Positions 208-56,190 of a stretch of 64,000 bases of DNA are shown one piece after another. The position numbers and the translations under genes are program-made. The stretch lies in assembly GCF_035499775.1 (NCBI RefSeq), contig NZ_DATJYB010000222.1:9502-73501 (forward strand), written 5' to 3'. This DNA comes from Mycobacterium sp. (lineage in GTDB: Bacteria > Actinomycetota > Actinomycetes > Mycobacteriales > Mycobacteriaceae). Position 1 is the first letter of the stretch. Each line of letters begins with the position of its first letter. The notes beneath the pieces are model-generated. The model had not been told where the DNA came from. It ran no database searches and was given only the letters and a program-made list of their open reading frames with translations.

Positions 208-2163
208 ATGCTGACCACGACGTATGCCGGGCTCACCGACCTCGGGCGCCAGAGGTCCCGTAACGACGACCGGTGGGGCGCAGACCCGGCGCAGGGCCTC
301 TACATAGTTGCCGACGGGGTGGGCAGCACCACCCATGGAGACATGGCCGCTGAACTGTGCGTCCAGTTGTTGCCGACGTACGTGGGCCGCCACTTCGCCG
401 GGGCCGACTTCCGTGACGGGGAGGTGGCAGCGCGGTTTGGCCGCGCCGTGGTGGAGATGTGCACCGACCTGCACGCGCGCAGCCAGACCGACTCTCAACT
501 CGCCGGCGCCGGCACCACCCTGGTGACCGTCATAATCAACGACGAGCTCGCGGTGATCGCTCATCTCGGTGACAGTCGTGCCTACCTGTACCGAAACCAG
601 CAGATGCAGCGGCTGACCAGCGATCACACTCTCGTGCAGGCGGTAGTGGATGCCGGCGAACTGACCGAAGAGGAGGCCGCACACCACCCGAAACGGTCGA
701 TAGTTACCCGGCAGGTGCTGATGACCCCGCCTGCGAAGCCCGATGTGAGTGTGCAGGAACTGCAGCCCGGTGACCGAATCCTGCTGTGCAGCGACGGTTT
801 ACACGGAGTCGTCGATGACGCGACGCTGGCCGCCATCCTCACCGAACACCCGGATGCGGCCGACGCATGCCAGGCGTTGATCGCGGCCGCCAACCAAGGC
901 GGGGGACCCGACAACATCACCACCGTGGTGATCGATGCCGACGGAGCAGGCGTATCCGCGCCCACGCCCACCGTCCAACCGACAGTGGCCGCCCAGACGG
1001 CGACGATGCCCGCGCCCGTACCCCAACCGAGCGCACCCGCGGCCCCACCGATCCCCGTACCGCCGCCGCCGCCGCAGCAGCAGGCCGTTCCACCCGCGCC
1101 ACCCGCTGGTCACGTTCCTCCCCGGATGGGGCCACCGCCGCCGCAGCCGCCGCAACCGCCAAGCCGACGCCGTGGACTGAAATGGGCCCTGGTCGGCTTG
1201 GTCGTCGTGTTACTGGCCGGCGCCGGCGTCGGCTACCTGCTGTGGGGGCACCAGCCGGCCTCACAACCGCGGGCTACGCAGACCGGGAAGCCGTCGGCCC
1301 AAGCGCCGGCGCCCGCGACGTCAACTCTGCAGTCGCTGCAGCCCGATCCCGCGTTGGGCCGTCAAATTACGCTGCCGTTCGGGGATCTCAAAAACGTCAA
1401 AGCCGTAGCGGTGGATGGCGCGGGCACTGTGTACGTCCTTGCCGTCAAAGGCGACAAAACGGTGGTGTTGAAGCTGATAAAGGGACAATCCGAAGCTGTC
1501 GACATGCAATTCGGCTATCTGACGGATGCTTACGGCATTGCGGTGGACCAGTCCGGGAAGAACGTCTACGTCACCGACCGCGCCAACAATGGTCGGCTGA
1601 TGAGGTGGACGGAAGGGTCGACCGAAGCGGGCGAGCTGCCCCTCCGGATGCAGAACGAGGGCAAGCTGAAGACGCCATACGGTGTAGCGGTCGCCGCCAG
1701 CGGCGTTGTCTACGTCGTCGACACCGAGGGCAACCAGGTGGTAAAGGTTCAGCCCGACGCCTCCGGAGATTCCCCGAACGCGACCGCGCTCCACTTCACC
1801 GGCCTCCATGACCCCGTCGGGGTCGCGGTGAACAGCAACGGAGATGTCTACGTCGTCGACCACAGCAAGAACGTCTACGGCAAGAACCGGTTGGTGAAGC
1901 TGCCGGCGGGCTCGGACAAGCAGGTGGATGTGCCTGCTACCGACCTCGATGAACTCACCGGGGTGGCGGTCAACGGCGACGACGTCTACATCACCGACCG
2001 TCATGACCATCAGGTGTTGAAGGTGTCGGCCGGCTCAACCACCCCGACGATCCTGCCGTTCACGGGGGTCGGCAGGCCCTCTGGTGTGGCCATAGACAGC
2101 AGCGGCAACGTCTACGTCACCGATGACGAGACCCGCAAGGTCCTGGAACTGCCGGCCGGCTAG
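208..2163 (+). CDS. Membrane-anchored PP2C (PPM) Ser/Thr phosphatase with a C-terminal NHL-repeat beta-propeller ectodomain
   Basis: The 651-aa ORF has N-terminal PP2C motifs (GLTDLGRQRSRNDDRW, YIVADGVGS, LCSDGL, GGPDNITTVVI). These are followed by a Pro-rich linker, one TM helix (WALVGLVVVLLAGAGVGYLLW) and about six repeats of the type xVYVxDxxxxxVxKL, as in the PknD sensor. Confidence 0.8.
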   Translation: MLTTTYAGLTDLGRQRSRNDDRWGADPAQGLYIVADGVGSTTHGDMAAELCVQLLPTYVGRHFAGADFRDGEVAARFGRAVVEMCTDLHARSQTDSQLAGAGTTLVTVIINDELAVIAHLGDSRAYLYRNQQMQRLTSDHTLVQAVVDAGELTEEEAAHHPKRSIVTRQVLMTPPAKPDVSVQELQPGDRILLCSDGLHGVVDDATLAAILTEHPDAADACQALIAAANQGGGPDNITTVVIDADGAGVSAPTPTVQPTVAAQTATMPAPVPQPSAPAAPPIPVPPPPPQQQAVPPAPPAGHVPPRMGPPPPQPPQPPSRRRGLKWALVGLVVVLLAGAGVGYLLWGHQPASQPRATQTGKPSAQAPAPATSTLQSLQPDPALGRQITLPFGDLKNVKAVAVDGAGTVYVLAVKGDKTVVLKLIKGQSEAVDMQFGYLTDAYGIAVDQSGKNVYVTDRANNGRLMRWTEGSTEAGELPLRMQNEGKLKTPYGVAVAASGVVYVVDTEGNQVVKVQPDASGDSPNATALHFTGLHDPVGVAVNSNGDVYVVDHSKNVYGKNRLVKLPAGSDKQVDVPATDLDELTGVAVNGDDVYITDRHDHQVLKVSAGSTTPTILPFTGVGRPSGVAIDSSGNVYVTDDETRKVLELPAG

Positions 2164-2859: not shown

Positions 2860-2943
2860 TCGCGCTGCGCGCCGGGCGAATACGACGCGCCGAGCCTTCG
2901 CCACACTTATCGTGTTGCTGGACCGCTGTTGCTTGGGAGGCTG

Positions 2944-4737
2944 ATGTTGGAGGGTACGGCGTTCGGACGCTATCGGCTGATCGAGTTGCTGGGCCGCGGC
3001 GGTATGGGCGAGGTGTGGCGGGCCCACGACACCGCCACCGACCGGACGGTCGCCATCAAGCTGTTGCCGGCGCATTTCTCCGACGACGAGGACTTTCAGC
3101 GGCGATTCCGCCGCGAGGCACAAGCCGCGGCACGGCTGAACACCCCGCATGTGGTCCCGATCCACGACTACGGCGAGATCGACGGCCGTTTGTATGTGAA
3201 TATGCGGTTGATCGAGGGTCGCGACCTGCAAACCGTGCTCACCGATGGCCCGATGGATCCGGCTCGCGCGGTGCACATCGTCGGCGGGGTGGCCAAGGCA
3301 TTGCATGCGGCCCACGAGGTCGGTCTGTTGCACCGGGACGTCAAACCCTCCAACATCCTGCTGGACCGCGACGACTTCGCCTACCTGATTGATTTCGGGA
3401 TCGCCCGCGCCCTGGACGAAACGCGAATGACCAAGTCGGGCAATACGATCGGCACCTTCCAATACATCGCGCCCGAGCGTCTGGGCGGCAAGGAGGACGC
3501 CCGCGCCGACATCTACTCGTTGGCCTGCGTCCTATACGAATGCCTCACCGGGACCCCGCCGTTCGGGCAACTCACGATGGCCGAGCTGGTCGTCGCACAC
3601 CTCCAATCCGCACCGCCCCAACCGTCAGCCACCCGACCGGAGGTGCCCGAGCAGATCGACCAGGTGATCGCCAGTGGCATGGCCAAGGACCCCGATCAGC
3701 GGTACGCCACCACCATCGAATTCGCCACCGCCGCCCGCGACGCGATCACGGTGCCAATTCCGACGCCTAAGCCGGCACCTGCGCCGGCACCTGCGCCGCA
3801 ACCGGTCCCCCAGCAGGCCTCGGTGCCCGTCCTACCACCGACGACCCCGGTCCAGCGTCCGGCGCCGCCGATCCCAGTTGATGCGGGTCATCCCGCGCCG
3901 CCCGTCCCGCGGCATCCACCCGTCGAAATGCCGCCGCACCGGCCGGACACGCACGTTGCGCGGCCTTCGCAGCCCTCGACGCGGCGCAAAGGCGTGCTGA
4001 TCGCGGCCGCTTTGGCCGTCGCGGTCGTTGCGGCGCTTGTGGTCTTTGGCCTGACGAACATCGGGAACCATCCGGCCCCCCAAACCGGCGAAACCAGCCA
4101 GACCAGCCAAACCGGTCAGACCGGCCAAAACGCGTTGCCGGACCCCGCCACCCTGCTGGCGCAATCCGTGGTCACCACCCGAGTGCTCAAGAGCGCACAT
4201 GTCGTTCAAGCCGTTGCCGGCAAGATCGAGGGGCTCCCCGTCAAGGCGCTGAATGCTGACGTCACGACGAGCCCCACGGCCGCGGCAACGGGACAGTGGA
4301 CGCTTACCTTCGCCGGATCGGATATCAACGCCAACTTTGTGGTTGTGGACGGGGAGCTCTACACCGATGCCTTGGCTGCGGGTCAATGGAGCGATATGGG
4401 TAAGGCCTCGGACGTCTGGGATCCGACGGTGATCTTGAACCCGGACGTCGGCCTGGCCAAGATACTGTCAGGCTTCAGCAGCCCGAAAGCCGTTGGCCGC
4501 GAAACGATCAACGGCTTCGCGACGGTCAAGATCACCGGTCAGGTCAGCGGCGACGCCGTCATCGCGATGCTCCCGAAGGCCGCGGTGAGCGGACCCGTTC
4601 CGGCCACCGCATGGATCCGGGAGGACGGCGACCACGAGTTGGTCCGGCTGACGCTGGAACCCAGCCCCGGCAACAGCCTCCAGCTCACGCTGTACAACTG
4701 GAATGCGCCCGTCACCGTAACCAAGCCGCCCGTCTGA
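2944..4737 (+). CDS. Transmembrane Ser/Thr protein kinase with an LppX/LprAFG-like C-terminal ectodomain
   Basis: Hanks kinase motifs are present: GRGGMGEVW, VAIK, HRDVKPSNIL, DFGIA and APE. A Pro-rich linker and a TM helix (VLIAAALAVAVVAALVVFGL) follow. The roughly 210-aa ectodomain ends in LQLTLYNWNAPVTVTKPPV, which is reminiscent of LprG/LppX. ATG 2944 is preceded by GGGAGG; an alternative TTG start is at 2929. Confidence 0.85.
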   Translation: MLEGTAFGRYRLIELLGRGGMGEVWRAHDTATDRTVAIKLLPAHFSDDEDFQRRFRREAQAAARLNTPHVVPIHDYGEIDGRLYVNMRLIEGRDLQTVLTDGPMDPARAVHIVGGVAKALHAAHEVGLLHRDVKPSNILLDRDDFAYLIDFGIARALDETRMTKSGNTIGTFQYIAPERLGGKEDARADIYSLACVLYECLTGTPPFGQLTMAELVVAHLQSAPPQPSATRPEVPEQIDQVIASGMAKDPDQRYATTIEFATAARDAITVPIPTPKPAPAPAPAPQPVPQQASVPVLPPTTPVQRPAPPIPVDAGHPAPPVPRHPPVEMPPHRPDTHVARPSQPSTRRKGVLIAAALAVAVVAALVVFGLTNIGNHPAPQTGETSQTSQTGQTGQNALPDPATLLAQSVVTTRVLKSAHVVQAVAGKIEGLPVKALNADVTTSPTAAATGQWTLTFAGSDINANFVVVDGELYTDALAAGQWSDMGKASDVWDPTVILNPDVGLAKILSGFSSPKAVGRETINGFATVKITGQVSGDAVIAMLPKAAVSGPVPATAWIREDGDHELVRLTLEPSPGNSLQLTLYNWNAPVTVTKPPV

Positions 4738-28826: not shown

Positions 28827-29367
28827 CTCCGGCGATCTACGGCCCGCGCATCCTTGGGCGCCTCGGCATCAATCCCTCGTCGGCGCTGGGCACTATCGAC
28901 CAGGGCAATTCAGCGGCAACTCGGGGGAATTTCAGGTAGTCGACTACTCGCGACAGTTCTTACTGCGTTGGGCAACATACCTCGTGGCTGACCCTACCCA
29001 CCGTCAGGCATCCGAGTATGGAGAACGACGTGTCTCGAACGACGAACAACTCCCATGACTGCGGAGCAGGAGCACAAGTGCACATGCTGCTGGAGCGGAT
29101 GGATACCAGCAACTTCACGCTGATCAACCGTGGCTTCCACTGGGTGCAGCCGGACCCTTACATCCGCTGATCGCGGGGGTCGGAAACTCCGCTGCAAGGA
29201 CTCGAACTTGAACTGGTCGGAAAAATGGATGTGTGGGTGACCTACGACGAATTGCATATTCGATTGTGGCGCACGCGGATTGTGGTCGGATACGATTTCA
29301 GTTCCGCACTCCATTGCAAGCTGGACAGCTGTATGAGAAACAGAGGCCCCTATACAGGAGAACGGCG

Positions 29368-31593
29368 ATGAATAACGTAGGCCCCGAGATAGGGACGCAC
29401 TTCGGACCCTATTTGCTCAAGCGGTTGCTCGGCAGTGGCGGCATGGGGGCCGTGTATGAGGCCCAAGACACCGTCATGGATCGAGTTGTGGCCTTGAAAC
29501 TCATCTCGGGCCCCTACGCGCAGGATCCCGACTATCGGCAGCGGCTACAGCGCGAAGCCCGCATCGCCGGGCGGCTGCAGGACCCCCATGTGGTGCCTGT
29601 CCACTCCACCGGCGAGATCGACGGTCAGCTCTACGTCGATATGCGGCTGATCAACGGCACCCCCCTGGACACAGTCTTGAGGAACTCGGGACCGCTGTCG
29701 CCGGCAAAGGCGGTGTCTGTGGTGGGCCAGATCGCCGCGGCGCTGGATGCCGCCCACGAGGTCGGGGTGCTGCACCGTGACGTGAAACCGGGAAACATCC
29801 TGATCACGGCTCGCGACTTCGCTTACCTGGTGGATTTCGGTATCGCCAACGCCGCCACTGAGCAGAAGTTGACCCAGATAGGCAATGTGCTCGGAACGTG
29901 GACCTACATGGCGCCGGAAAGGTTCCAGGGCGACGGGACCCAGGTGACGGAGCGTGCTGACACCTACGCGCTGGCGTGCGTGTTGTTCGAAGCCCTCACC
30001 GGGGCTCCGCCATTCTCCGGCGACACCGCGAGTCTGGTCGCCGCACACTTGACCCAGCCCGTCCCGCGCATCGGTTCGCGCGTGGGGCTGCCACCGGCAC
30101 TCGACGACGTGATCGCCCGCGGTATGGCCAAACAGCCTCAAGACCGATACGCGACGAGCGGAGAGTTTGCCCGAGCGGCCGAAGCTGCTCTCGCGACCTT
30201 GGGCAGCACGACTACCCGGATCCCGCTGGCGACAGTCACCGATTCGCCCGCACCGACTCTGCCCGCCCAGCACACGCCGCCGAACGTAGCAGCTCCTCCC
30301 ATTCACACCAATCCATACGGTCCTTATGCCGGGTCTTACGTTCCACCGACAACACCTCTTGGACCGCAGCCTGTACCCACGCGCGGCAAGCGGGGGCGGT
30401 GGGTTCTGGTCGCGGCGGCGATTCTCCTCGTCGTCGCCTTGGCGGCGGGATTCGGGATCTGGAAGCTGGTTGGCGGCAAGTCCTCCCGGCCGCAAGGTGT
30501 GGACCTCAGCAAACTCGACGTGGGACATTACGGGACGAAGCCCCGGCCCCTGACCGGTTCCCCGACCGTGGAGGAGGGCCGCTATCTCGAGGCCTTTCGC
30601 CTCGGCGAGGGCATCGTAAATCCCTACGACGTCGACCCCATACTGGATCACGTCGGCGGAGGGGCGCTAACGGAACCTCGGCGGGTCGCCGAGAGAATCA
30701 GCGGCACGCAAACACCCGTCGTGCAGCCGGTGTTGGAAAAGTACAGCATGATTACCACCTTTGCCGTCTCGGCGTTGAGCGACACAGGCAAAGACCGGCT
30801 GCATGTGATGTTGATAAGTTTCCCCAACGCTGACCTCGCCAGGAAGGCCGCCGCCGAGATGGACGCGACCGACTTCGCGGTAAACCCGGAAAACCAGCAG
30901 GCCGCGATCCCTGGGTATCCTCAGGCGAATTCACATTTTTGGCCCAAGTCTCCGACGCTCGTGGCGACCCTGGCACAAGGCAGGTTCGTCGTATGGACGC
31001 AAACCATCAACGCCCCAACGCCCGACCTAGACGCTATGAAGCAGCGGTTGAAACACGTCTTCGATCTACAGGTTCCCTTGATGCAGAAGCTGGCGGGTGC
31101 CTTGGAAGGCGACCTGACCTCGTTGCCGCTTGATCCGGATCAGATGCTCAGTCGAACCTTCGTCGCCGGGGACCAACCGAAGATATCCGATGCTTTTTGG
31201 AGCGCGGGTCCCCGCGCCGTCGGCGTGCTTTGTTCGAACAGCCAAATGCTCAAGGACGGGCTCCTCGGGCAGGCTGGCGTCGACCGATGCTCCCAGGGCG
31301 CCGACGGTTTCCTGCTGCGGGCGAAAGACGAGACTGCTGCTGCGGCGGCTCTGCCCAAGCTGATCGAGACTCGGAAAGAATCCGTCGAACATGACGTCGC
31401 ACCACCGGACGGGCTCGCCAACGCCGCCCGGTGCTTCGAAACGAAGCAAGAGCTCTGGGCCCAGAGCGCGAAGGCTCGCTTCATGTGTTATGTGACGTTT
31501 GGGCGCTACGTCGCCGGGATGACGAGCGGCGAGGAAAAGGACGCGCGCCGGCGCGCTGCTGCCCAGTACGCAATCCTGGTCAACGCCGATTAA
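29368..31593 (+). CDS. Transmembrane Ser/Thr protein kinase with a large uncharacterised ectodomain
   Basis: I call 741 aa from ATG 29368. Kinase motifs are GSGGMGAVY, VALK, HRDVKPGNIL, DFGIA and APE. A TM helix (WVLVAAAILLVVALAAGFGIW) follows. I do not recognise the roughly 340-aa C-terminal domain, which contains 4 Cys. Confidence 0.85.
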   Translation: MNNVGPEIGTHFGPYLLKRLLGSGGMGAVYEAQDTVMDRVVALKLISGPYAQDPDYRQRLQREARIAGRLQDPHVVPVHSTGEIDGQLYVDMRLINGTPLDTVLRNSGPLSPAKAVSVVGQIAAALDAAHEVGVLHRDVKPGNILITARDFAYLVDFGIANAATEQKLTQIGNVLGTWTYMAPERFQGDGTQVTERADTYALACVLFEALTGAPPFSGDTASLVAAHLTQPVPRIGSRVGLPPALDDVIARGMAKQPQDRYATSGEFARAAEAALATLGSTTTRIPLATVTDSPAPTLPAQHTPPNVAAPPIHTNPYGPYAGSYVPPTTPLGPQPVPTRGKRGRWVLVAAAILLVVALAAGFGIWKLVGGKSSRPQGVDLSKLDVGHYGTKPRPLTGSPTVEEGRYLEAFRLGEGIVNPYDVDPILDHVGGGALTEPRRVAERISGTQTPVVQPVLEKYSMITTFAVSALSDTGKDRLHVMLISFPNADLARKAAAEMDATDFAVNPENQQAAIPGYPQANSHFWPKSPTLVATLAQGRFVVWTQTINAPTPDLDAMKQRLKHVFDLQVPLMQKLAGALEGDLTSLPLDPDQMLSRTFVAGDQPKISDAFWSAGPRAVGVLCSNSQMLKDGLLGQAGVDRCSQGADGFLLRAKDETAAAAALPKLIETRKESVEHDVAPPDGLANAARCFETKQELWAQSAKARFMCYVTFGRYVAGMTSGEEKDARRRAAAQYAILVNAD

Positions 31594-47770: not shown

Positions 47771-48480
47771 AAATCCGATCCGAGCTGGATCCTGCCGTGC
47801 CTGCGGTTGGTGCTGCGGGAACGGATGGTCACACCCGCCGCGCCATCGTGCGCCTGCTGCTGGAATCCGGATCGATCACCGCCAGTGAGATCGGCGACCG
47901 ACTGGGCCTGGCGGCCGCCGGCGTGCGGCGTCATCTCGACGCGCTGATCGAGGCCGGCGACGCCGAATCCGCGCCCGCTGCGGCATGGCAGCAGGCGGGA
48001 CGGGGGCGGCCGGCGAAGCGCTTCCGGCTGACGGCCGCCGGCCGGGCCAAGCTCGACCACGCCTATGACGACCTGGCCGCCGCGGCCATGCGCCAGCTGC
48101 GCGAGATCGGCGGCGAGGACGCCGTTCGGACGTTCGCGCGCCGGCGCATCGACTCGATCCTGGCCGGCGTCGAGGGGGCCGGCAGCGCCGGCGACGACGA
48201 TGTCGAGGCGGCCGCCGACCGGGTCGCCGCAGCGCTGACCAAGGCCGGTTACGTCGCGACCACCACGCGGGTCGGCGGACCCATCCACGGCGTGCAGATC
48301 TGTCAGCACCACTGTCCGGTTTCGCACGTCGCCGAGGAATTTCCGGAGTTGTGCGAAGCCGAACAGCAGGCGATGGCCGAGGTGCTCGGGACCCACGTCC
48401 AGCGCCTGGCGACCATCGTCAACGGCGACTGCGCCTGCACCACCCACGTGCCGCTCACGCCCGCGGCCGGCAAGACCTAG
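47767..48480 (+). CDS. sufR: Fe-S cluster-sensing transcriptional repressor SufR (Rv1460-like)
   Basis: It has a winged HTH (RRAIVRLLLESGSITASEIGDRLGLAAAGVRRHLDAL) and C-terminal Cys ligands (CQHHCPVSHV...CEAE...CAC). The start is uncertain: GTG 47767 gives 237 aa and ATG 47635 gives 281 aa. Confidence 0.75.
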   Translation: MKIRSELDPAVPAVGAAGTDGHTRRAIVRLLLESGSITASEIGDRLGLAAAGVRRHLDALIEAGDAESAPAAAWQQAGRGRPAKRFRLTAAGRAKLDHAYDDLAAAAMRQLREIGGEDAVRTFARRRIDSILAGVEGAGSAGDDDVEAAADRVAAALTKAGYVATTTRVGGPIHGVQICQHHCPVSHVAEEFPELCEAEQQAMAEVLGTHVQRLATIVNGDCACTTHVPLTPAAGKT

Positions 48481-48537: not shown

Positions 48538-51500
48538 ATGACACTGACGCCAGAGGCCAGCAGGACCGCTGCCGCACCGTTGACTCAGGACGAGGCCATC
48601 GCCTCCCTGGGCAACTACGGCTACGGCTGGTCGGACTCCGACGTCGCAGGCGCCAGCGCACAGCGCGGCCTCTCCGAGGCCGTCGTGCGCGACATCTCGG
48701 CGAAGAAGAACGAGCCCGAGTGGATGCTGAAGACCCGGCTGAAGGCGCTGGGCATCTTCGACCGCAAGCCGATGCCGAACTGGGGTTCCAACCTGGAGGG
48801 CATCGACTTCGACAACATCAAGTACTTCGTGCGCTCGACCGAGAAGCAGGCCGCCTCTTGGGAAGAGCTGCCGGAAGATATCCGCAACACCTACGACCGG
48901 CTGGGAATCCCGGAGGCGGAAAAGCAGCGCCTTGTTGCCGGCGTTGCGGCCCAGTACGAGTGCCTCGCCGGTGAAACTTTGGTATGGACCGCCAACCGCG
49001 GGCAGGTCCCGATCAAGGAGATCGAGTTCGGCGATCGGGTGTTCTCCTACGACGAGTCTGCCGAGCAGTTTGTCGTCGCGCCGGTCAAGGCGGCAGCGCA
49101 GACCGACACCCGGCTGACATATGAGATCAAGACCACTCGGCTCAGCATCCGTGCCACTGATAACCACCCCATGCTGGTGCTGCGCGACGAGCGCAAGGAG
49201 GGCCGCCAGCGTGCCCGCTATGCGCGGCGTTGGGTCACAGTGGGAGAACTGAAGGCAGGCGATTTCATCGCAGTGCCACGAACCGTTCCGGATTTCGGTG
49301 TCGCGGCTGAACTTCCGATCATCGCCGGATTGACAGCTCCAGAGACCAGTTCGATCGACCTGATGTGGCTGCTGGGCTTGTACGTCGGCGACGGCAACCT
49401 GCATCTGTCGACCAAGACGTATCGCGTTCAGTTCGCAATCCCGGCAACCGATGTTGAGTTGCGCGCGGAGTTGACCCGGGTCATCAAGGAACTATTCGGG
49501 TTGCGTTGCATCGAGGCTGACGAATACCGCGTCGTTGTCAACTCAAAGGCGTTGACGGAGTGGATCGTTGCGCTGGGATTCAGCGGATTGTCGCTGACCA
49601 AGCGGGTGCCCGAGTGGGTCTACGGGCTGCCGGTTGACCAGCGGCTGGCATTCCTCGGCGGCTGGGTTGACGCCGACGGCTACGTCCAGCCGGAACGATG
49701 TGGCTCCGTGATGCTTACCTGTGCCAATGAGCCTCTCATCAATCAAGCCCGGGAGCTTGCCGAACTTTCCGGGCTGCGCGCGGGCGGGCCTTGGTCGTTC
49801 ACTCAGCCGTACCGGCACGCCCCGGAACGCATGCAGATTGCTTGGCGCCTAGGGATTTCCGGTGACTTCGAGCGCCTCGGATGCCGCAATCTGAAGCGAA
49901 CAGACCGCTTCGGTCGCCGCCGCTACGTGCATTCGTCCAACAGTTCGCACGGGACGACGATCCGAGCGCACACCAACGATTGGCTTGGCTTCGAGCGGGT
50001 CAAGTCAATCGAACCGTATGCCATCGAGCCGGTGTATGACATCGAGGTCGACGGTCCACATAATTTTGTGGCTGCAGGACTCGTGGTACACAACTCCGAG
50101 GTGGTCTACCACCAGATCCGAGAGGACCTGGAAGCCCAAGGCGTTATCTTCCTGGACACCGATACTGGTTTGCGGGAGCATCCGGAGATTTTCCAGAAAT
50201 ATTTTGGAACAGTAATTCCGGCAGGCGATAATAAGTTTTCTGCATTGAATACTGCGGTGTGGAGTGGCGGTTCTTTTATTTACGTCCCGCCGGGTGTGCG
50301 CGTCGACATCCCGCTGCAGGCGTATTTCCGGATCAACACCGAGAACATGGGCCAGTTCGAGCGAACGCTGATCATCGCCGACGAGGGCTCCTACGTGCAT
50401 TACGTCGAGGGCTGCCTGCCGGCAGGTGAGCTGATCACGACCGCGGACGGCGACCTGCGGCCCATCGAGTCGATTCGCGTCGGTGATTACGTCACTGGCC
50501 ACGATGGCCGGCCGCATCGCGTCACCGCGGTGCAAATGCGCGACCTCAATGGCGAATTGTTCACCTTCACGCCGATGTCGCCCGCCAACAAATTCTCCGT
50601 CACAGCAGAGCACCCCTTGCTCGTCGTCCCGCGCGCCGAGGTGCGCGTCATGCGCAAGGAACGCAACGGATGGAAGGCGGAAGTCAATAGTGCCAAGCTG
50701 CGTGTTGCCGAGCCGCGGTGGATCGCGGCAAAGGACGTGGCCGAGGGCGACTTCCTGATTTACCCCAAGCCGAAGCCGATCCCGCACAAGACGGTGCTGC
50801 CGCTCGAGTTCGCGCGGCTCGCCGGCTACTACCTGGCCGAGGGTCACGCGTGCCTCACCAACAACTGTGAGTCGCTGATCTTCTCGTTCCACAGTGATGA
50901 ATTCGAATACGTCGAGGACGTGCGCCAGGCGTGCAAGTCGCTCTACGAGAAGTCTGGTTCGGTATTGGTCGAGGAGCACAAGCACTCGGCGCGCGTGACC
51001 GTCTACACGAAGGCGGGCTACGCCGCGATGCGCGACAACGTCGGCATCGGATCGTCGAAAAAGAAGTTGTCCGATCTCCTGATGCGTCAGGACGAGATCT
51101 TCCTACGCGAGTTGGTGGACGCCTATGTCAACGGCGACGGCAACATCATCGAACGCGGCGGCGCGCTCTGGAAGCGGGTTCACACGACGTCACGTGTCTG
51201 GGCGTTCCAGCTGCAGTCGATCCTGGCGCGACTGGGTCACTACGCCACCGTCGAGCTGCGCCGGCCGGCAGGTCCGGGTGTCATCATGGGCCGCAATGTC
51301 ATGCGCAAGGACATCTACCAGGTCCAGTGGACCGAGGGTGGCCACGGACCCAAGCAGGCCCGCGACTGCGGCGACTACTTCGCCGTGCCGATCAAGAAGC
51401 GCGCGGTGCGAGAGGCGCACGAGCCCGTGTACAACCTCGACGTCGAAGCGCCCGACAGCTACCTCGCCTACGGCTTCGCGGTGCACAACTGCACCGCGCC

Positions 51501-52197
51501 CATTTACAAATCGGACTCGTTGCACTCGGCAGTGGTCGAGATAGTCGTGAAACCCCATGCACGCGTTCGCTACACCACGATCCAGAACTGGTCGAACAAC
51601 GTCTACAACCTGGTCACCAAGCGCGCCCGCGCCGAGGCCGGAGCCACCATGGAGTGGGTCGACGGCAACATCGGGTCCAAGGTGACCATGAAGTACCCGG
51701 CGGTCTGGATGACCGGCGAGCACGCCAAGGGTGAGGTGCTCTCGGTGGCGTTCGCCGGCGAAGACCAGCACCAGGACACCGGCGCCAAGATGCTGCACCT
51801 GGCGCCCAACACGTCGAGCAACATCGTGTCCAAGTCGGTCGCGCGCGGCGGCGGCCGCACCTCCTATCGAGGGCTGGTGCAAGTCAACAAGGGCGCGCAC
51901 GGCTCCAAGTCCAGCGTGAAATGCGATGCGCTGCTGGTTGATACGATCAGCCGCAGCGACACCTACCCTTACGTCGACATCCGCGAGGACGACGTCACGA
52001 TGGGCCACGAGGCCACCGTGTCCAAGGTCAGCGAGAACCAGCTGTTCTACCTGATGAGCCGCGGGCTCACCGAGGACGAGGCCATGGCGATGGTGGTGCG
52101 CGGGTTCGTCGAGCCGATCGCCAAGGAACTGCCGATGGAGTACGCGCTGGAGCTCAACCGGCTGATCGAGCTGCAGATGGAGGGCGCGGTCGGATGA
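48538..52197 (+). CDS. sufB: Fe-S cluster assembly protein SufB precursor containing two inteins (mature extein about 482 aa)
   Basis: The 1219-aa ORF is preceded by AAAGGAG. After removing 48961..50094 and 50413..51489, the sequence is colinear with conserved SufB (..AAQYE|SEVVYHQIREDL.. and ..SYVHYVEG|CTAPIYKSDSLHSAVVEIV..). Confidence 0.95.
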   Translation: MTLTPEASRTAAAPLTQDEAIASLGNYGYGWSDSDVAGASAQRGLSEAVVRDISAKKNEPEWMLKTRLKALGIFDRKPMPNWGSNLEGIDFDNIKYFVRSTEKQAASWEELPEDIRNTYDRLGIPEAEKQRLVAGVAAQYECLAGETLVWTANRGQVPIKEIEFGDRVFSYDESAEQFVVAPVKAAAQTDTRLTYEIKTTRLSIRATDNHPMLVLRDERKEGRQRARYARRWVTVGELKAGDFIAVPRTVPDFGVAAELPIIAGLTAPETSSIDLMWLLGLYVGDGNLHLSTKTYRVQFAIPATDVELRAELTRVIKELFGLRCIEADEYRVVVNSKALTEWIVALGFSGLSLTKRVPEWVYGLPVDQRLAFLGGWVDADGYVQPERCGSVMLTCANEPLINQARELAELSGLRAGGPWSFTQPYRHAPERMQIAWRLGISGDFERLGCRNLKRTDRFGRRRYVHSSNSSHGTTIRAHTNDWLGFERVKSIEPYAIEPVYDIEVDGPHNFVAAGLVVHNSEVVYHQIREDLEAQGVIFLDTDTGLREHPEIFQKYFGTVIPAGDNKFSALNTAVWSGGSFIYVPPGVRVDIPLQAYFRINTENMGQFERTLIIADEGSYVHYVEGCLPAGELITTADGDLRPIESIRVGDYVTGHDGRPHRVTAVQMRDLNGELFTFTPMSPANKFSVTAEHPLLVVPRAEVRVMRKERNGWKAEVNSAKLRVAEPRWIAAKDVAEGDFLIYPKPKPIPHKTVLPLEFARLAGYYLAEGHACLTNNCESLIFSFHSDEFEYVEDVRQACKSLYEKSGSVLVEEHKHSARVTVYTKAGYAAMRDNVGIGSSKKKLSDLLMRQDEIFLRELVDAYVNGDGNIIERGGALWKRVHTTSRVWAFQLQSILARLGHYATVELRRPAGPGVIMGRNVMRKDIYQVQWTEGGHGPKQARDCGDYFAVPIKKRAVREAHEPVYNLDVEAPDSYLAYGFAVHNCTAPIYKSDSLHSAVVEIVVKPHARVRYTTIQNWSNNVYNLVTKRARAEAGATMEWVDGNIGSKVTMKYPAVWMTGEHAKGEVLSVAFAGEDQHQDTGAKMLHLAPNTSSNIVSKSVARGGGRTSYRGLVQVNKGAHGSKSSVKCDALLVDTISRSDTYPYVDIREDDVTMGHEATVSKVSENQLFYLMSRGLTEDEAMAMVVRGFVEPIAKELPMEYALELNRLIELQMEGAVG
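48961..50094 (+). mobile_element. SufB intein 1 (378 aa) with a LAGLIDADG homing-endonuclease domain
   Basis: It starts with Cys1 (CLAGETLVWT) and has block B ATDNHP. The LAGLIDADG motifs are LLGLYVGDGNL and FLGGWVDADGYV. It ends VYDIEVDGPHNFVAAGLVVHN, followed by Ser+1. The insertion is in frame. Confidence 0.9.
50413..51489 (+). mobile_element. SufB intein 2 (359 aa) with a LAGLIDADG homing-endonuclease domain
   Basis: It starts with Cys1 (CLPAGELITT) and has block B TAEHP. The LAGLIDADG motifs are LAGYYLAEGHA and LVDAYVNGDGNI. It ends VYNLDVEAPDSYLAYGFAVHN, followed by Cys+1. From memory, the length and the Cys1/Cys+1 pair match the M. tuberculosis SufB intein. Confidence 0.9.
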
Positions 52198-53344
52198 CCG
52201 CTGCATTGAATAAGGGGGAGTTGTTCTCCTCCTTCGATGTTGACGCGTTCGAGGTTCCGCACGGCCGCGACGAGCTCTGGCGATTCACCCCGCTGAGGCG
52301 ACTGCGTGGCCTGCACGACGGGTCCGCTAACGCCACCGGAAGCGCTCAGATCGCCGTCAGCGAGCTGCCCGGCGTGCGGACCGAGACGGTGCGCCGCGGC
52401 GACGATCGCCTCGGGCAAGGCGGGGTTCCTGCTGACCGCGTTGCAGCCCAAGCGTTTTCGTCGTTCAACTCGGCAACGCTGATCACCGTCGGACGCGACA
52501 CGCAGATCGCCGAACCGGTCAACGTCGCCGTCACCGGACCCGGCACAGGCGCGGTGGCCTACGGGCACCTGCAGATCCGGGTCGAAGAGCTCGGCGAGGC
52601 CGTCGTCATCATCGACCACCGGGGCAGTGGAACCTACGCGGACAACGTCGAATTCGTCGTCGGCGACGCCGCGCGACTCACCGTCGTGTGGATCGCCGAC
52701 TGGGCCGACGACACGGTGCACCTCAGCGCCCACCACGCAAAGCTCGGCAAGGACGCGGTGCTGCGCCACGTCACCGTCACGCTCGGCGGCGAGGTGGTGC
52801 GGTTGTCGGCCAACGTGCGGTTCAACAGCACCGGCGGGGACGCCGAGCTCCTGGGCCTGTACTTCGCCGACGACGGTCAGCACCTCGAATCGAGGCTGCT
52901 GGTCGACCACGCCCACCCCGACTGCAGGTCCAACGTGCTGTACAAGGGTGCGCTGCAAGGAGATCCGGCGTCGAACCTGCCCGACGCGCACACCGTCTGG
53001 ATAGGCGACGTGCTGATCCGGGCCGAGGCCACCGGAACCGACACCTTCGAGGTGAACCGCAACCTGGTGCTCACCGACGGCGCCCGCGCCGACTCGGTGC
53101 CCAACCTGGAAATCGAGACCGGCGAGATCGTCGGCGCCGGACACGCCAGCGCCACCGGACGATTCGACGACGAGCAACTGTTCTACCTGCGTTCCCGCGG
53201 CATCCCCGAAGAGCAGGCCCGCCGGTTGGTGGTGCGCGGCTTCTTCGGCGAGATCATCTCCAAGATCGCGGTGCCCGATGTCCGGGACCGCCTGACCGCA
53301 GCCATCGAACACGAACTGGAAATCACGGAAAAGACTGCTACCTC

Positions 53345-53348
<4 letters not shown>
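52194..53348 (+). CDS. sufD: Fe-S cluster assembly protein SufD
   Basis: The 384-aa ORF overlaps sufB by ATGA. It has a beta-helix-type repeat sequence and a conserved C-terminal FYLRSRGI. Confidence 0.9.
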
Positions 53349-55842
<2,494 letters not shown>

Positions 55843-55868
<26 letters not shown>

Positions 55869-56190
55869 CGAACTGCTCTTCGATATCGAGGAGGCGATGC
55901 GTGACGTGGTCGACCCCGAACTGGGCATCAACGTCGTCGACCTTGGGTTGGTCTATGGCCTGAACCTGGAATCGGGTGACGAGGGCAAGGTCGCGCTGAT
56001 CGACATGACGCTGACATCCGCCGCCTGCCCGCTCACCGACGTCATCGAAGACCAGTCGCGCTCGGCGCTCGTCGGCAGCGGTCTGGTCAACGAAATCCGG
56101 ATCAACTGGGTGTGGAACCCGCCCTGGGGCCCGGACAAGATCACCGAGGACGGGCGCGAGCAACTCCGCGCGCTGGGCTTCACTGTCTGA
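55843..56190 (+). CDS. sufT: DUF59/SufT-family Fe-S assembly protein (Rv1466-like)
   Basis: I call 115 aa starting at MSETSAPDDE. It has DPELGINVVDLGLVY and TLTSAACP motifs, and overlaps the sufU 3' end by 26 nt. Confidence 0.85.

Follow-up and report, generated by a model that had tools for sequence, protein, structure and literature searches.

Two putative class-1 inteins of full length at separate sites in the sufB gene of an uncultured Mycobacterium

How does a sufB open reading frame (ORF) of 1219 codons yield a working SufB, and why should the gene of an essential protein carry two insertions at once? These questions are raised by positions 48538..52197 (+ strand) of the window, by which we mean the whole 64-kb stretch of DNA from an uncultured Mycobacterium analyzed here. 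SufB is the essential mycobacterial iron–sulfur (Fe-S) scaffold, and the M. tuberculosis SufB intein has been studied as a stress sensor and drug target. It is very probable that sufB of this organism has been invaded at two sites by unrelated full-length class-1 inteins, mainly selfish elements that would splice themselves out to leave a SufB of 482 amino acids (aa). An ORF and frame check bore out the initial annotation in its reading of a 1219-aa ORF with two in-frame insertions, at 48961..50094 and 50413..51489, the first lying 106 codons upstream of the second at AAQYE/SEVV. The parts of the precursor are as follows; the site labels a, b, c and d used throughout are our own and run in N-to-C order.

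48538..52197, + strand: sufB precursor ORF, 1219 codons plus stop; SUFBD_core (8e-85) and SufBD_N by Pfam
48538..48960, + strand: N-extein, SufB aa 1-141, ending in AAQYE; junction aligned between D147 and S148 of E. coli SufB
48961..50094, + strand: intein 1, 378 aa, site a, Cys1 and Ser+1, CLAGETLV...GLVVHN then SEVV; candidate class-1 intein with LAGLIDADG endonuclease domain
50095..50412, + strand: middle extein, 106 aa, SufB aa 142-247, SEVV...YVEG; His at -5 and Arg at -38 relative to intein 2
50413..51489, + strand: intein 2, 359 aa, site c, Cys1 and Cys+1, CLPAGELI...GFAVHN then CTAP; orthologue of the M. tuberculosis SufB (Pps1) intein
51490..52197, + strand: C-extein, SufB aa 248-482 plus stop; first residue Cys+1, aligned to E. 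coli SufB C254

Excision of both inteins leaves a 482-aa SufB that aligns to E. coli SufB (5awf_A) in one stretch (35-482 vs 28-495, E 1e-112) with neither intein junction gapped, so that the earlier claim of a contiguous and conserved host protein holds; the unspliced precursor aligns to the same protein as three separate pieces. The equivalents of E. coli SufB C254, C405 and H433/E434, the functional roles of which have been described (PMC5571166, PMC13228346), are aligned and identical in the spliced product. A motif check located in both insertions all the splicing blocks named in the initial annotation (Cys1, a TxxH block, a terminal HN, and Ser+1 or Cys+1), together with two LAGLIDADG motifs per insertion in which the acidic residues are kept (D144 and D239 in intein 1; E143 and D242 in intein 2). 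These blocks are placed as follows.

49156..49167, + strand: intein 1 block B, TDNH, aa 66-69; T66, D67, N68 and H69 invariant
49369..49395, + strand: intein 1 first LAGLIDADG motif, LLGLYVGDG, acidic D144 at the C-terminal end of predicted helix 132-144
49651..49680, + strand: intein 1 second LAGLIDADG motif, FLGGWVDADG, acidic D239 at the end of predicted helix 225-239
50032..50094, + strand: intein 1 blocks F and G, VYDIEVDGPHNFVAAGLVVHN; D360, H367, N368, H377 and N378 invariant
50602..50613, + strand: intein 2 block B, TAEH, aa 64-67; T64, E66 and H67 invariant
50818..50844, + strand: intein 2 first LAGLIDADG motif, LAGYYLAEG, acidic E143 at the end of predicted helix 131-143
51112..51141, + strand: intein 2 second LAGLIDADG motif, LVDAYVNGDG, acidic D242 at the end of predicted helix 228-242
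51427..51489, + strand: intein 2 blocks F and G, VYNLDVEAPDSYLAYGFAVHN; H358 and N359 invariant

The C-terminal region of intein 1 reads VYDIEVDGPHNF...VVHN and is followed by Ser, and that of intein 2 reads VYNLDVEAPDSY...AVHN and is followed by Cys. Thirty aligned site-a inteins all have C1, T66-D-N-H69, D239, D360, H367, N368, H377 and N378; D144 is retained in 90% of them or more. Among 21 aligned site-c inteins, the invariant positions are C1, T64, E66, H67, H358 and N359, with E143 and D242 kept in at least 90%.

Profile searches and structure prediction give a consistent picture of both elements. Pfam assigned intein 1 to Intein_splicing (2e-18, 67 bits, cutoff 35.8), LAGLIDADG_3 (5e-8) and Hint, and intein 2 to Hom_end_hint (2e-8, 35.1 bits, cutoff 32.1), LAGLIDADG_3 and Hint_2; the Intein_splicing profile reached only 23.6 bits on intein 2, under the cutoff, and LAGLIDADG_3 scored 33.6 and 23.5 bits in the two inteins vs a cutoff of 22.5. 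AlphaFold2 models, built on alignments with full-length database proteins, had a predicted local distance difference test (pLDDT) score of 89 and a predicted template modelling (pTM) score of 0.86 for intein 1, and 87 and 0.86 for intein 2. In Foldseek comparisons with the PDB, full-length endonuclease-bearing inteins ranked first (TliVMA, PhoVMA, PI-SceI, PI-PkoII and PI-PfuI; E 1e-11 to 6e-23), with mini-inteins and the free LAGLIDADG enzymes I-DmoI, I-AniI and I-SceI lower in the lists, in agreement with the LAGLIDADG alpha-beta-beta-alpha-beta-beta-alpha fold. The best match of the intein 1 model was TliVMA (E 6e-23), PI-SceI and mini-inteins also being matched, and the intein 2 model retrieved PI-SceI at E 1.5e-17. 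All four acidic LAGLIDADG residues fall at the C-terminal ends of predicted helices, and the endonuclease domains of both inteins look full length and intact. Judged by splicing blocks, predicted HINT fold, in-frame position and the host protein that is restored on excision, both insertions would belong to class 1. Identity between the two is just about 21%, for which reason they are regarded as independent invaders.

The initial annotation likened intein 2 to the SufB intein of M. tuberculosis, and the resemblance proved exact in site (YVEG/CTAP), length (359 aa) and the Cys1/Cys+1 pair. The two sequences can be aligned without gaps, 334 of 359 residues being identical (93%) to the intein of P0032, the protein cluster that represents M. 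tuberculosis SufB. The M. tuberculosis element is a 359-aa intein in an 846-aa precursor, with C1, C+1, His67, His358 and Asn359 described (PMC8891592); as encoded by Rv1461, it shares with intein 2 the TAEH block, both LAGLIDADG motifs and the terminal HN, and the N-extein His-5 is also common to it and the window. The differences are that sufB of the window has a second intein 106 codons upstream, and that position -38 (50299-50301 of the window, precursor aa 588) is Arg, not His. N-extein His-5 and His-38 are reported to assist splicing of M. tuberculosis SufB, and the conserved His-38 to aid N-cleavage (PMC8891592); both are accessory and do not define an intein. In 19 other site-c carriers caught by a motif search, position -38 is His in 17, Gln in one and Lys in one. 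E. coli SufB also has Arg at the equivalent position.

What would the two insertions do to the protein? In E. coli, SufB first accepts persulfide from SufE at C254, and a flexible segment of SufBC2D, residues 78-158, borders the C254 pocket (PMC5571166, PMC13228346). The site of intein 1, equivalent to the D147 and S148 junction, falls within this segment, and the +1 Cys of intein 2 is the equivalent of C254 in the alignment. As placed in this way, both insertions would disrupt the sulfur-entry part of the SufB scaffold. Since they lie in the sulfur-acceptor region, precursor or half-spliced SufB should be inactive and both splicings should be needed; the placement of both inteins in this region, with the Cys+1 of intein 2 aligned to C254, would explain the expected inactivity of the unspliced precursor. 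Unspliced M. tuberculosis SufB does not bind SufC and SufD, according to work cited in PMC8529194. It follows from the sequence that maturation would take two splicing events with different +1 nucleophiles. In the proposed pathway, the 1219-aa precursor would be translated and each intein would then excise itself by the canonical four-step reaction, i.e., an N-S acyl shift at Cys1, trans-esterification to the +1 residue (Ser for intein 1, Cys for intein 2), cyclisation of the terminal Asn, and an acyl rearrangement that would yield the 482-aa SufB.

To place the double allele among its relatives, the best 120 protein matches were classified, three of them being re-placed at sites a and c by gapped alignment. 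Inteins at a+c were present in 27 of the 120 (24 by BLAST tally and the three by gapped alignment), at site a only in 90, and at site c only in one, a cluster that corresponds to the M. tuberculosis complex; two matches have three inteins. Extra sites that had appeared at extein positions 166, 174 and 270 were BLAST extension artefacts, which gapped alignment moved to sites a and c. The complete genome of M. shinjukuense encodes an a+c SufB (WP_083049212.1) of 1223 aa, 90% identical over its full length. Among 80 species-level genomes with intein 1, the a+c arrangement occurs in 10 complete sufB genes, including that of M. asiaticum 1165133.8, and in one further gene whose contig ends inside intein 2 (L039); one genome has a+b+c and one a+b. 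The window shares its a+c architecture with M. shinjukuense WP_083049212.1 and M. asiaticum 1165133.8 and represents a species-level lineage other than either. The identical 1219-aa protein was found only on one ENA metagenome contig of 76.5 kb (ERZ27256576 k141_3614156), and the best match of intein 1 among GTDB species representatives is 89% identical, with no match at species level in the genome collection. The double allele is less unusual than the initial annotation implied. It is not new, being already present in public sequence from M. shinjukuense, one M. asiaticum strain and many metagenome genomes. The initial annotation left open whether the allele had been described; no account of a two-intein SufB was found in the literature searched. 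According to its legend, one review figure marks mycobacterial DnaB, RecA and SufB in different colours for 'one' or 'two' inteins. The intein families, their sites and even the double architecture are public, and two-intein SufB as a sequence class has apparently gone undiscussed.

More of the retrieved relatives have a SufB intein at site a (AAQYE/SEVV) than at any other site. With one genome scanned per species, a site-a intein was detected at 75-89% identity in M. triplex, M. kyorinense, M. genavense, M. asiaticum, M. persicum, M. attenuatum, M. palustre and M. helveticum, as well as in many metagenome genomes, and at lower identity (about 60%) in Pseudonocardiaceae, Frankiaceae, Jiangellaceae and other Actinomycetota. 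A search with intein 1 alone returned mostly SufB fragments and no further named species. The SufB intein sites of M. triplex, M. xenopi and M. leprae are reported to differ from that of M. tuberculosis (PMC8891592). The site-a inteins of the first seven species named above, M. triplex to M. palustre, resemble intein 1 in site, in their length of 378 aa and in 83-88% of residues; they are the sole SufB intein of these species (M. asiaticum 1165133.8 excepted), whereas the window adds an M. tuberculosis-type intein. The M. gastri Pps1 intein (PI-MgaI), which is reported to be an active endonuclease, may belong to the site-a group.

Other combinations occur beside these. P0001 (WP_343600680.1, L014:6001-9705, from the Mycobacterium sp. 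metagenome-assembled genome (MAG) PQ1_20S_bin_1) is a 1601-aa protein with three full-length inteins at a, b and c, its site b (VWSGG/SFIY) holding a 392-aa intein; P0030, from an ENA contig, has 1618 aa and three full-length inteins at a, c and d, where site d (GNIG/SKVT) holds 407 aa; and a Jiangellaceae MAG (L070) has a+b. Taken together, these architectures imply at least four SufB intein sites in Actinomycetota. A protein search with the middle (site b) intein of P0001 returned six unnamed or MAG matches, M. leprae not being among them, and the link between site b and M. leprae depends solely on the literature label 'SufB-b in M. leprae' and a length of 386 aa. The contigs with three Mycobacterium-like intein-bearing sufB genes (L034, L043, P0008) are assigned to MAGs named 'Candidatus Sericytochromatia' or 'Candidatus Melainabacteria', labels that most likely reflect binning contamination or mislabelling.

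Since the sequence comes from a k141 metagenome contig, the two inteins might have been brought together by assembly, with a-only and c-only alleles of two co-occurring mycobacteria joined across the 318-bp middle extein. This extein is highly conserved, with up to 97% aa identity to the closest relative (L013), and could in principle have served as the point of joining. Such a chimera is nevertheless very improbable, because isolate genomes have the same architecture (the complete M. shinjukuense genome and M. asiaticum 1165133.8, the nearest extein neighbour) and because all segments of the gene show similar divergence from the same relatives. GC content at third codon positions (GC3) also argues against it, as intein 2 (0.855) equals the exteins (0.85) in this respect. 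Intein 1 is lower, at 0.74; this deficit is family-wide, with a mean of 0.10 over 74 loci. Weaker codon selection or a partly separate history are possible reasons for the low GC3 of intein 1 and for the high synonymous divergence (dS) of the inteins.

A tree of the exteins, built on about 450 conserved residues, shows a+c alleles scattered among a-only sister lineages. The nearest neighbour of the window is M. asiaticum 1165133.8 (a+c), and the other M. asiaticum genome is a-only. Such scatter is consistent with intein c having been gained or lost repeatedly against mostly vertical inheritance; on so few residues and with a sample conditioned on intein 1, the gains and losses are not countable from the tree. 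Distances between inteins rise with those between exteins (Spearman rho 0.66 for intein 1, 0.80 for intein 2), the inteins changing at two to three times the extein rate. The two M. asiaticum genomes, 1081914.2 with site a only and 1165133.8 with a+c (L005 and L013), do not group as sisters in the extein tree, and the name M. asiaticum is for that reason probably applied to more than one lineage. In the phage collection, no close relative was found, none of its inteins exceeding 26% identity to intein 1 or intein 2.

Selection was assessed by comparison with 11 double-intein relatives. In the eight closest, the ratio of nonsynonymous to synonymous divergence (dN/dS) was 0.05-0.13 in the splicing part and 0.04-0.11 in the endonuclease part of intein 1, and 0.05-0.11 in the splicing part and 0.06-0.16 in the endonuclease part of intein 2, values that are rough because dS (0.7-1.9) is near saturation. 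Both inteins have a dS two to four times as high as the C-extein. Constraint on amino-acid replacement is nevertheless clear in the endonuclease domains, no less than in the splicing domains, and apparently intact LAGLIDADG domains under purifying selection fit continued homing into empty alleles; the inteins would persist mainly as selfish elements.

The same data bear on whether the two inteins could be fixed relics, which still splice but have inactive endonucleases and are inherited vertically as imprecise loss would kill an essential gene. The correlation of intein and extein distances speaks for such inheritance, and endonuclease decay does occur in the site-a family. Against this, all four acidic LAGLIDADG residues are kept and the domains are full length in the window, the endonuclease dN/dS is as low as that of the splicing part (0.04-0.16), and site c is patchy on the extein tree. 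Since the motifs are intact and dN/dS is low, the relic explanation is disfavoured, and we give it a one-in-four sort of chance, i.e., unlikely but worth keeping in mind. The decay in question is seen as deletions in the endonuclease region of site-a inteins, of 46 aa in L061 (L061:6001-6996), 12 aa in L054 (L054:6001-7098) and 7 aa in L058 (L058:6001-7113), and L054 in addition has Asn instead of the first LAGLIDADG Asp. These three endonucleases look like decaying ones, as the homing-cycle model predicts.

Several points weigh against two actively splicing, mainly selfish inteins. Besides the roughness of the dN/dS values, purifying selection on the endonuclease domains could mean a structural role and not active homing. 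The replacement of His-38 by Arg means that the kinetics of intein 2 may differ from those of its M. tuberculosis counterpart. The linkage of the two inteins is seen at the level of a metagenome assembly, not of reads. Finally, we infer splicing, endonuclease activity and redox control from the anatomy, homology, fold, conservation and distribution observed here.

Splicing of the M. tuberculosis SufB intein is blocked by oxidation via a Cys1-Cys+1 disulfide (PMC8529194). By analogy, the same trap is plausible for intein 2; it is not possible for intein 1, which has Ser+1. This difference leads to the most interesting of the alternatives, in which the host keeps both inteins as a conditional switch with two inputs and makes the maturation of SufB depend on two distinct signals. 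Intein 2 would be reversibly disulfide-trapped under oxidative or nitrosative stress, and intein 1 would answer another cue or splice constitutively. The analogy is drawn from the M. tuberculosis SufB intein, inhibited by oxidation (PMC8529194) and equipped with the same Cys1/Cys+1 residues, and from M. smegmatis DnaB, the two inteins of which (DnaBi1 and DnaBi2) have different stress responses (PMC6195587). The position of both inteins at the persulfide-acceptor region would suit such a role, and the double allele recurs in many lineages, with intein and extein distances correlated at rho 0.66-0.80. Yet close relatives do with a single intein and the SufB of M. smegmatis lacks inteins altogether (PMC8891592), the scattered occurrence of site c in sister lineages is what a mobile element would show, and retained endonuclease domains have been linked to mobile, not domesticated, inteins (PMC6195587). 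On present evidence, host benefit and selfish persistence are not separable. We regard the switch as improbable. A stronger form, in which a+c SufB is a naturally maintained post-translational gate on the only Fe-S assembly scaffold and both conditions must be permissive, appears slightly more doubtful still; under such a gate, the change from His-38 to Arg could further retune intein 2.

The allele has a counterpart in M. smegmatis DnaB, which is also an essential protein with two unrelated inteins that must both splice (PMC6195587). The difference lies in the elements, since DnaBi1 is a class-3 mini-intein lacking an endonuclease, whereas both SufB inteins of the window are of full length and, by their blocks, of class 1. 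By pairing an M. tuberculosis-type intein with a chemically different Cys1/Ser+1 intein, the allele offers a natural system for splicing questions, such as whether the two splicings are independent, in which order they take place and whether they differ in redox or metal sensitivity. For the study of dual conditional splicing the window sufB could be a useful model; as genome annotation it is ordinary and would not surprise a specialist.

The genomic setting is that of a regular gene, and nothing suggests that sufB is a pseudogene. A GGAG Shine-Dalgarno sequence precedes its ATG start by about 9 nt, and its stop codon and the start codon of sufD overlap in ATGA. Called genes, Pfam domains and translations give the order sufR-sufB-sufD-sufC-sufS-sufU-sufT, which is the canonical mycobacterial suf operon; 5' of it lie an mptB-like gene, an ABC transporter, ctaA and transketolase. 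The genes flanking sufB are the following.

47797..48480, + strand: sufR-like helix-turn-helix (HTH) regulator gene, directly 5' of sufB, 227 aa; HTH_20/HTH_24 domains
52194..53348, + strand: sufD, SUFBD_core domain
53345..54127, + strand: sufC, ABC_tran domain
54130..55383, + strand: sufS, Aminotran_5 domain
55380..55868, + strand: sufU, NifU_N domain
55843..56190, + strand: sufT, FeS_assembly_P domain

Across the whole 64-kb window, no tRNA genes and no Rfam families at the gathering threshold were found, and the Hint domain is absent from ten other long ORFs of the window. Three signalling ORFs have unusual domain combinations: at 2929-4737 (+) a Ser/Thr kinase is fused to an LppX_LprAFG lipoprotein domain, at 208-2163 (+) NHL beta-propeller repeats accompany a PP2C phosphatase, and at 29233-31593 (+) DUF7373 N- and C-terminal domains occur together with a Ser/Thr kinase.

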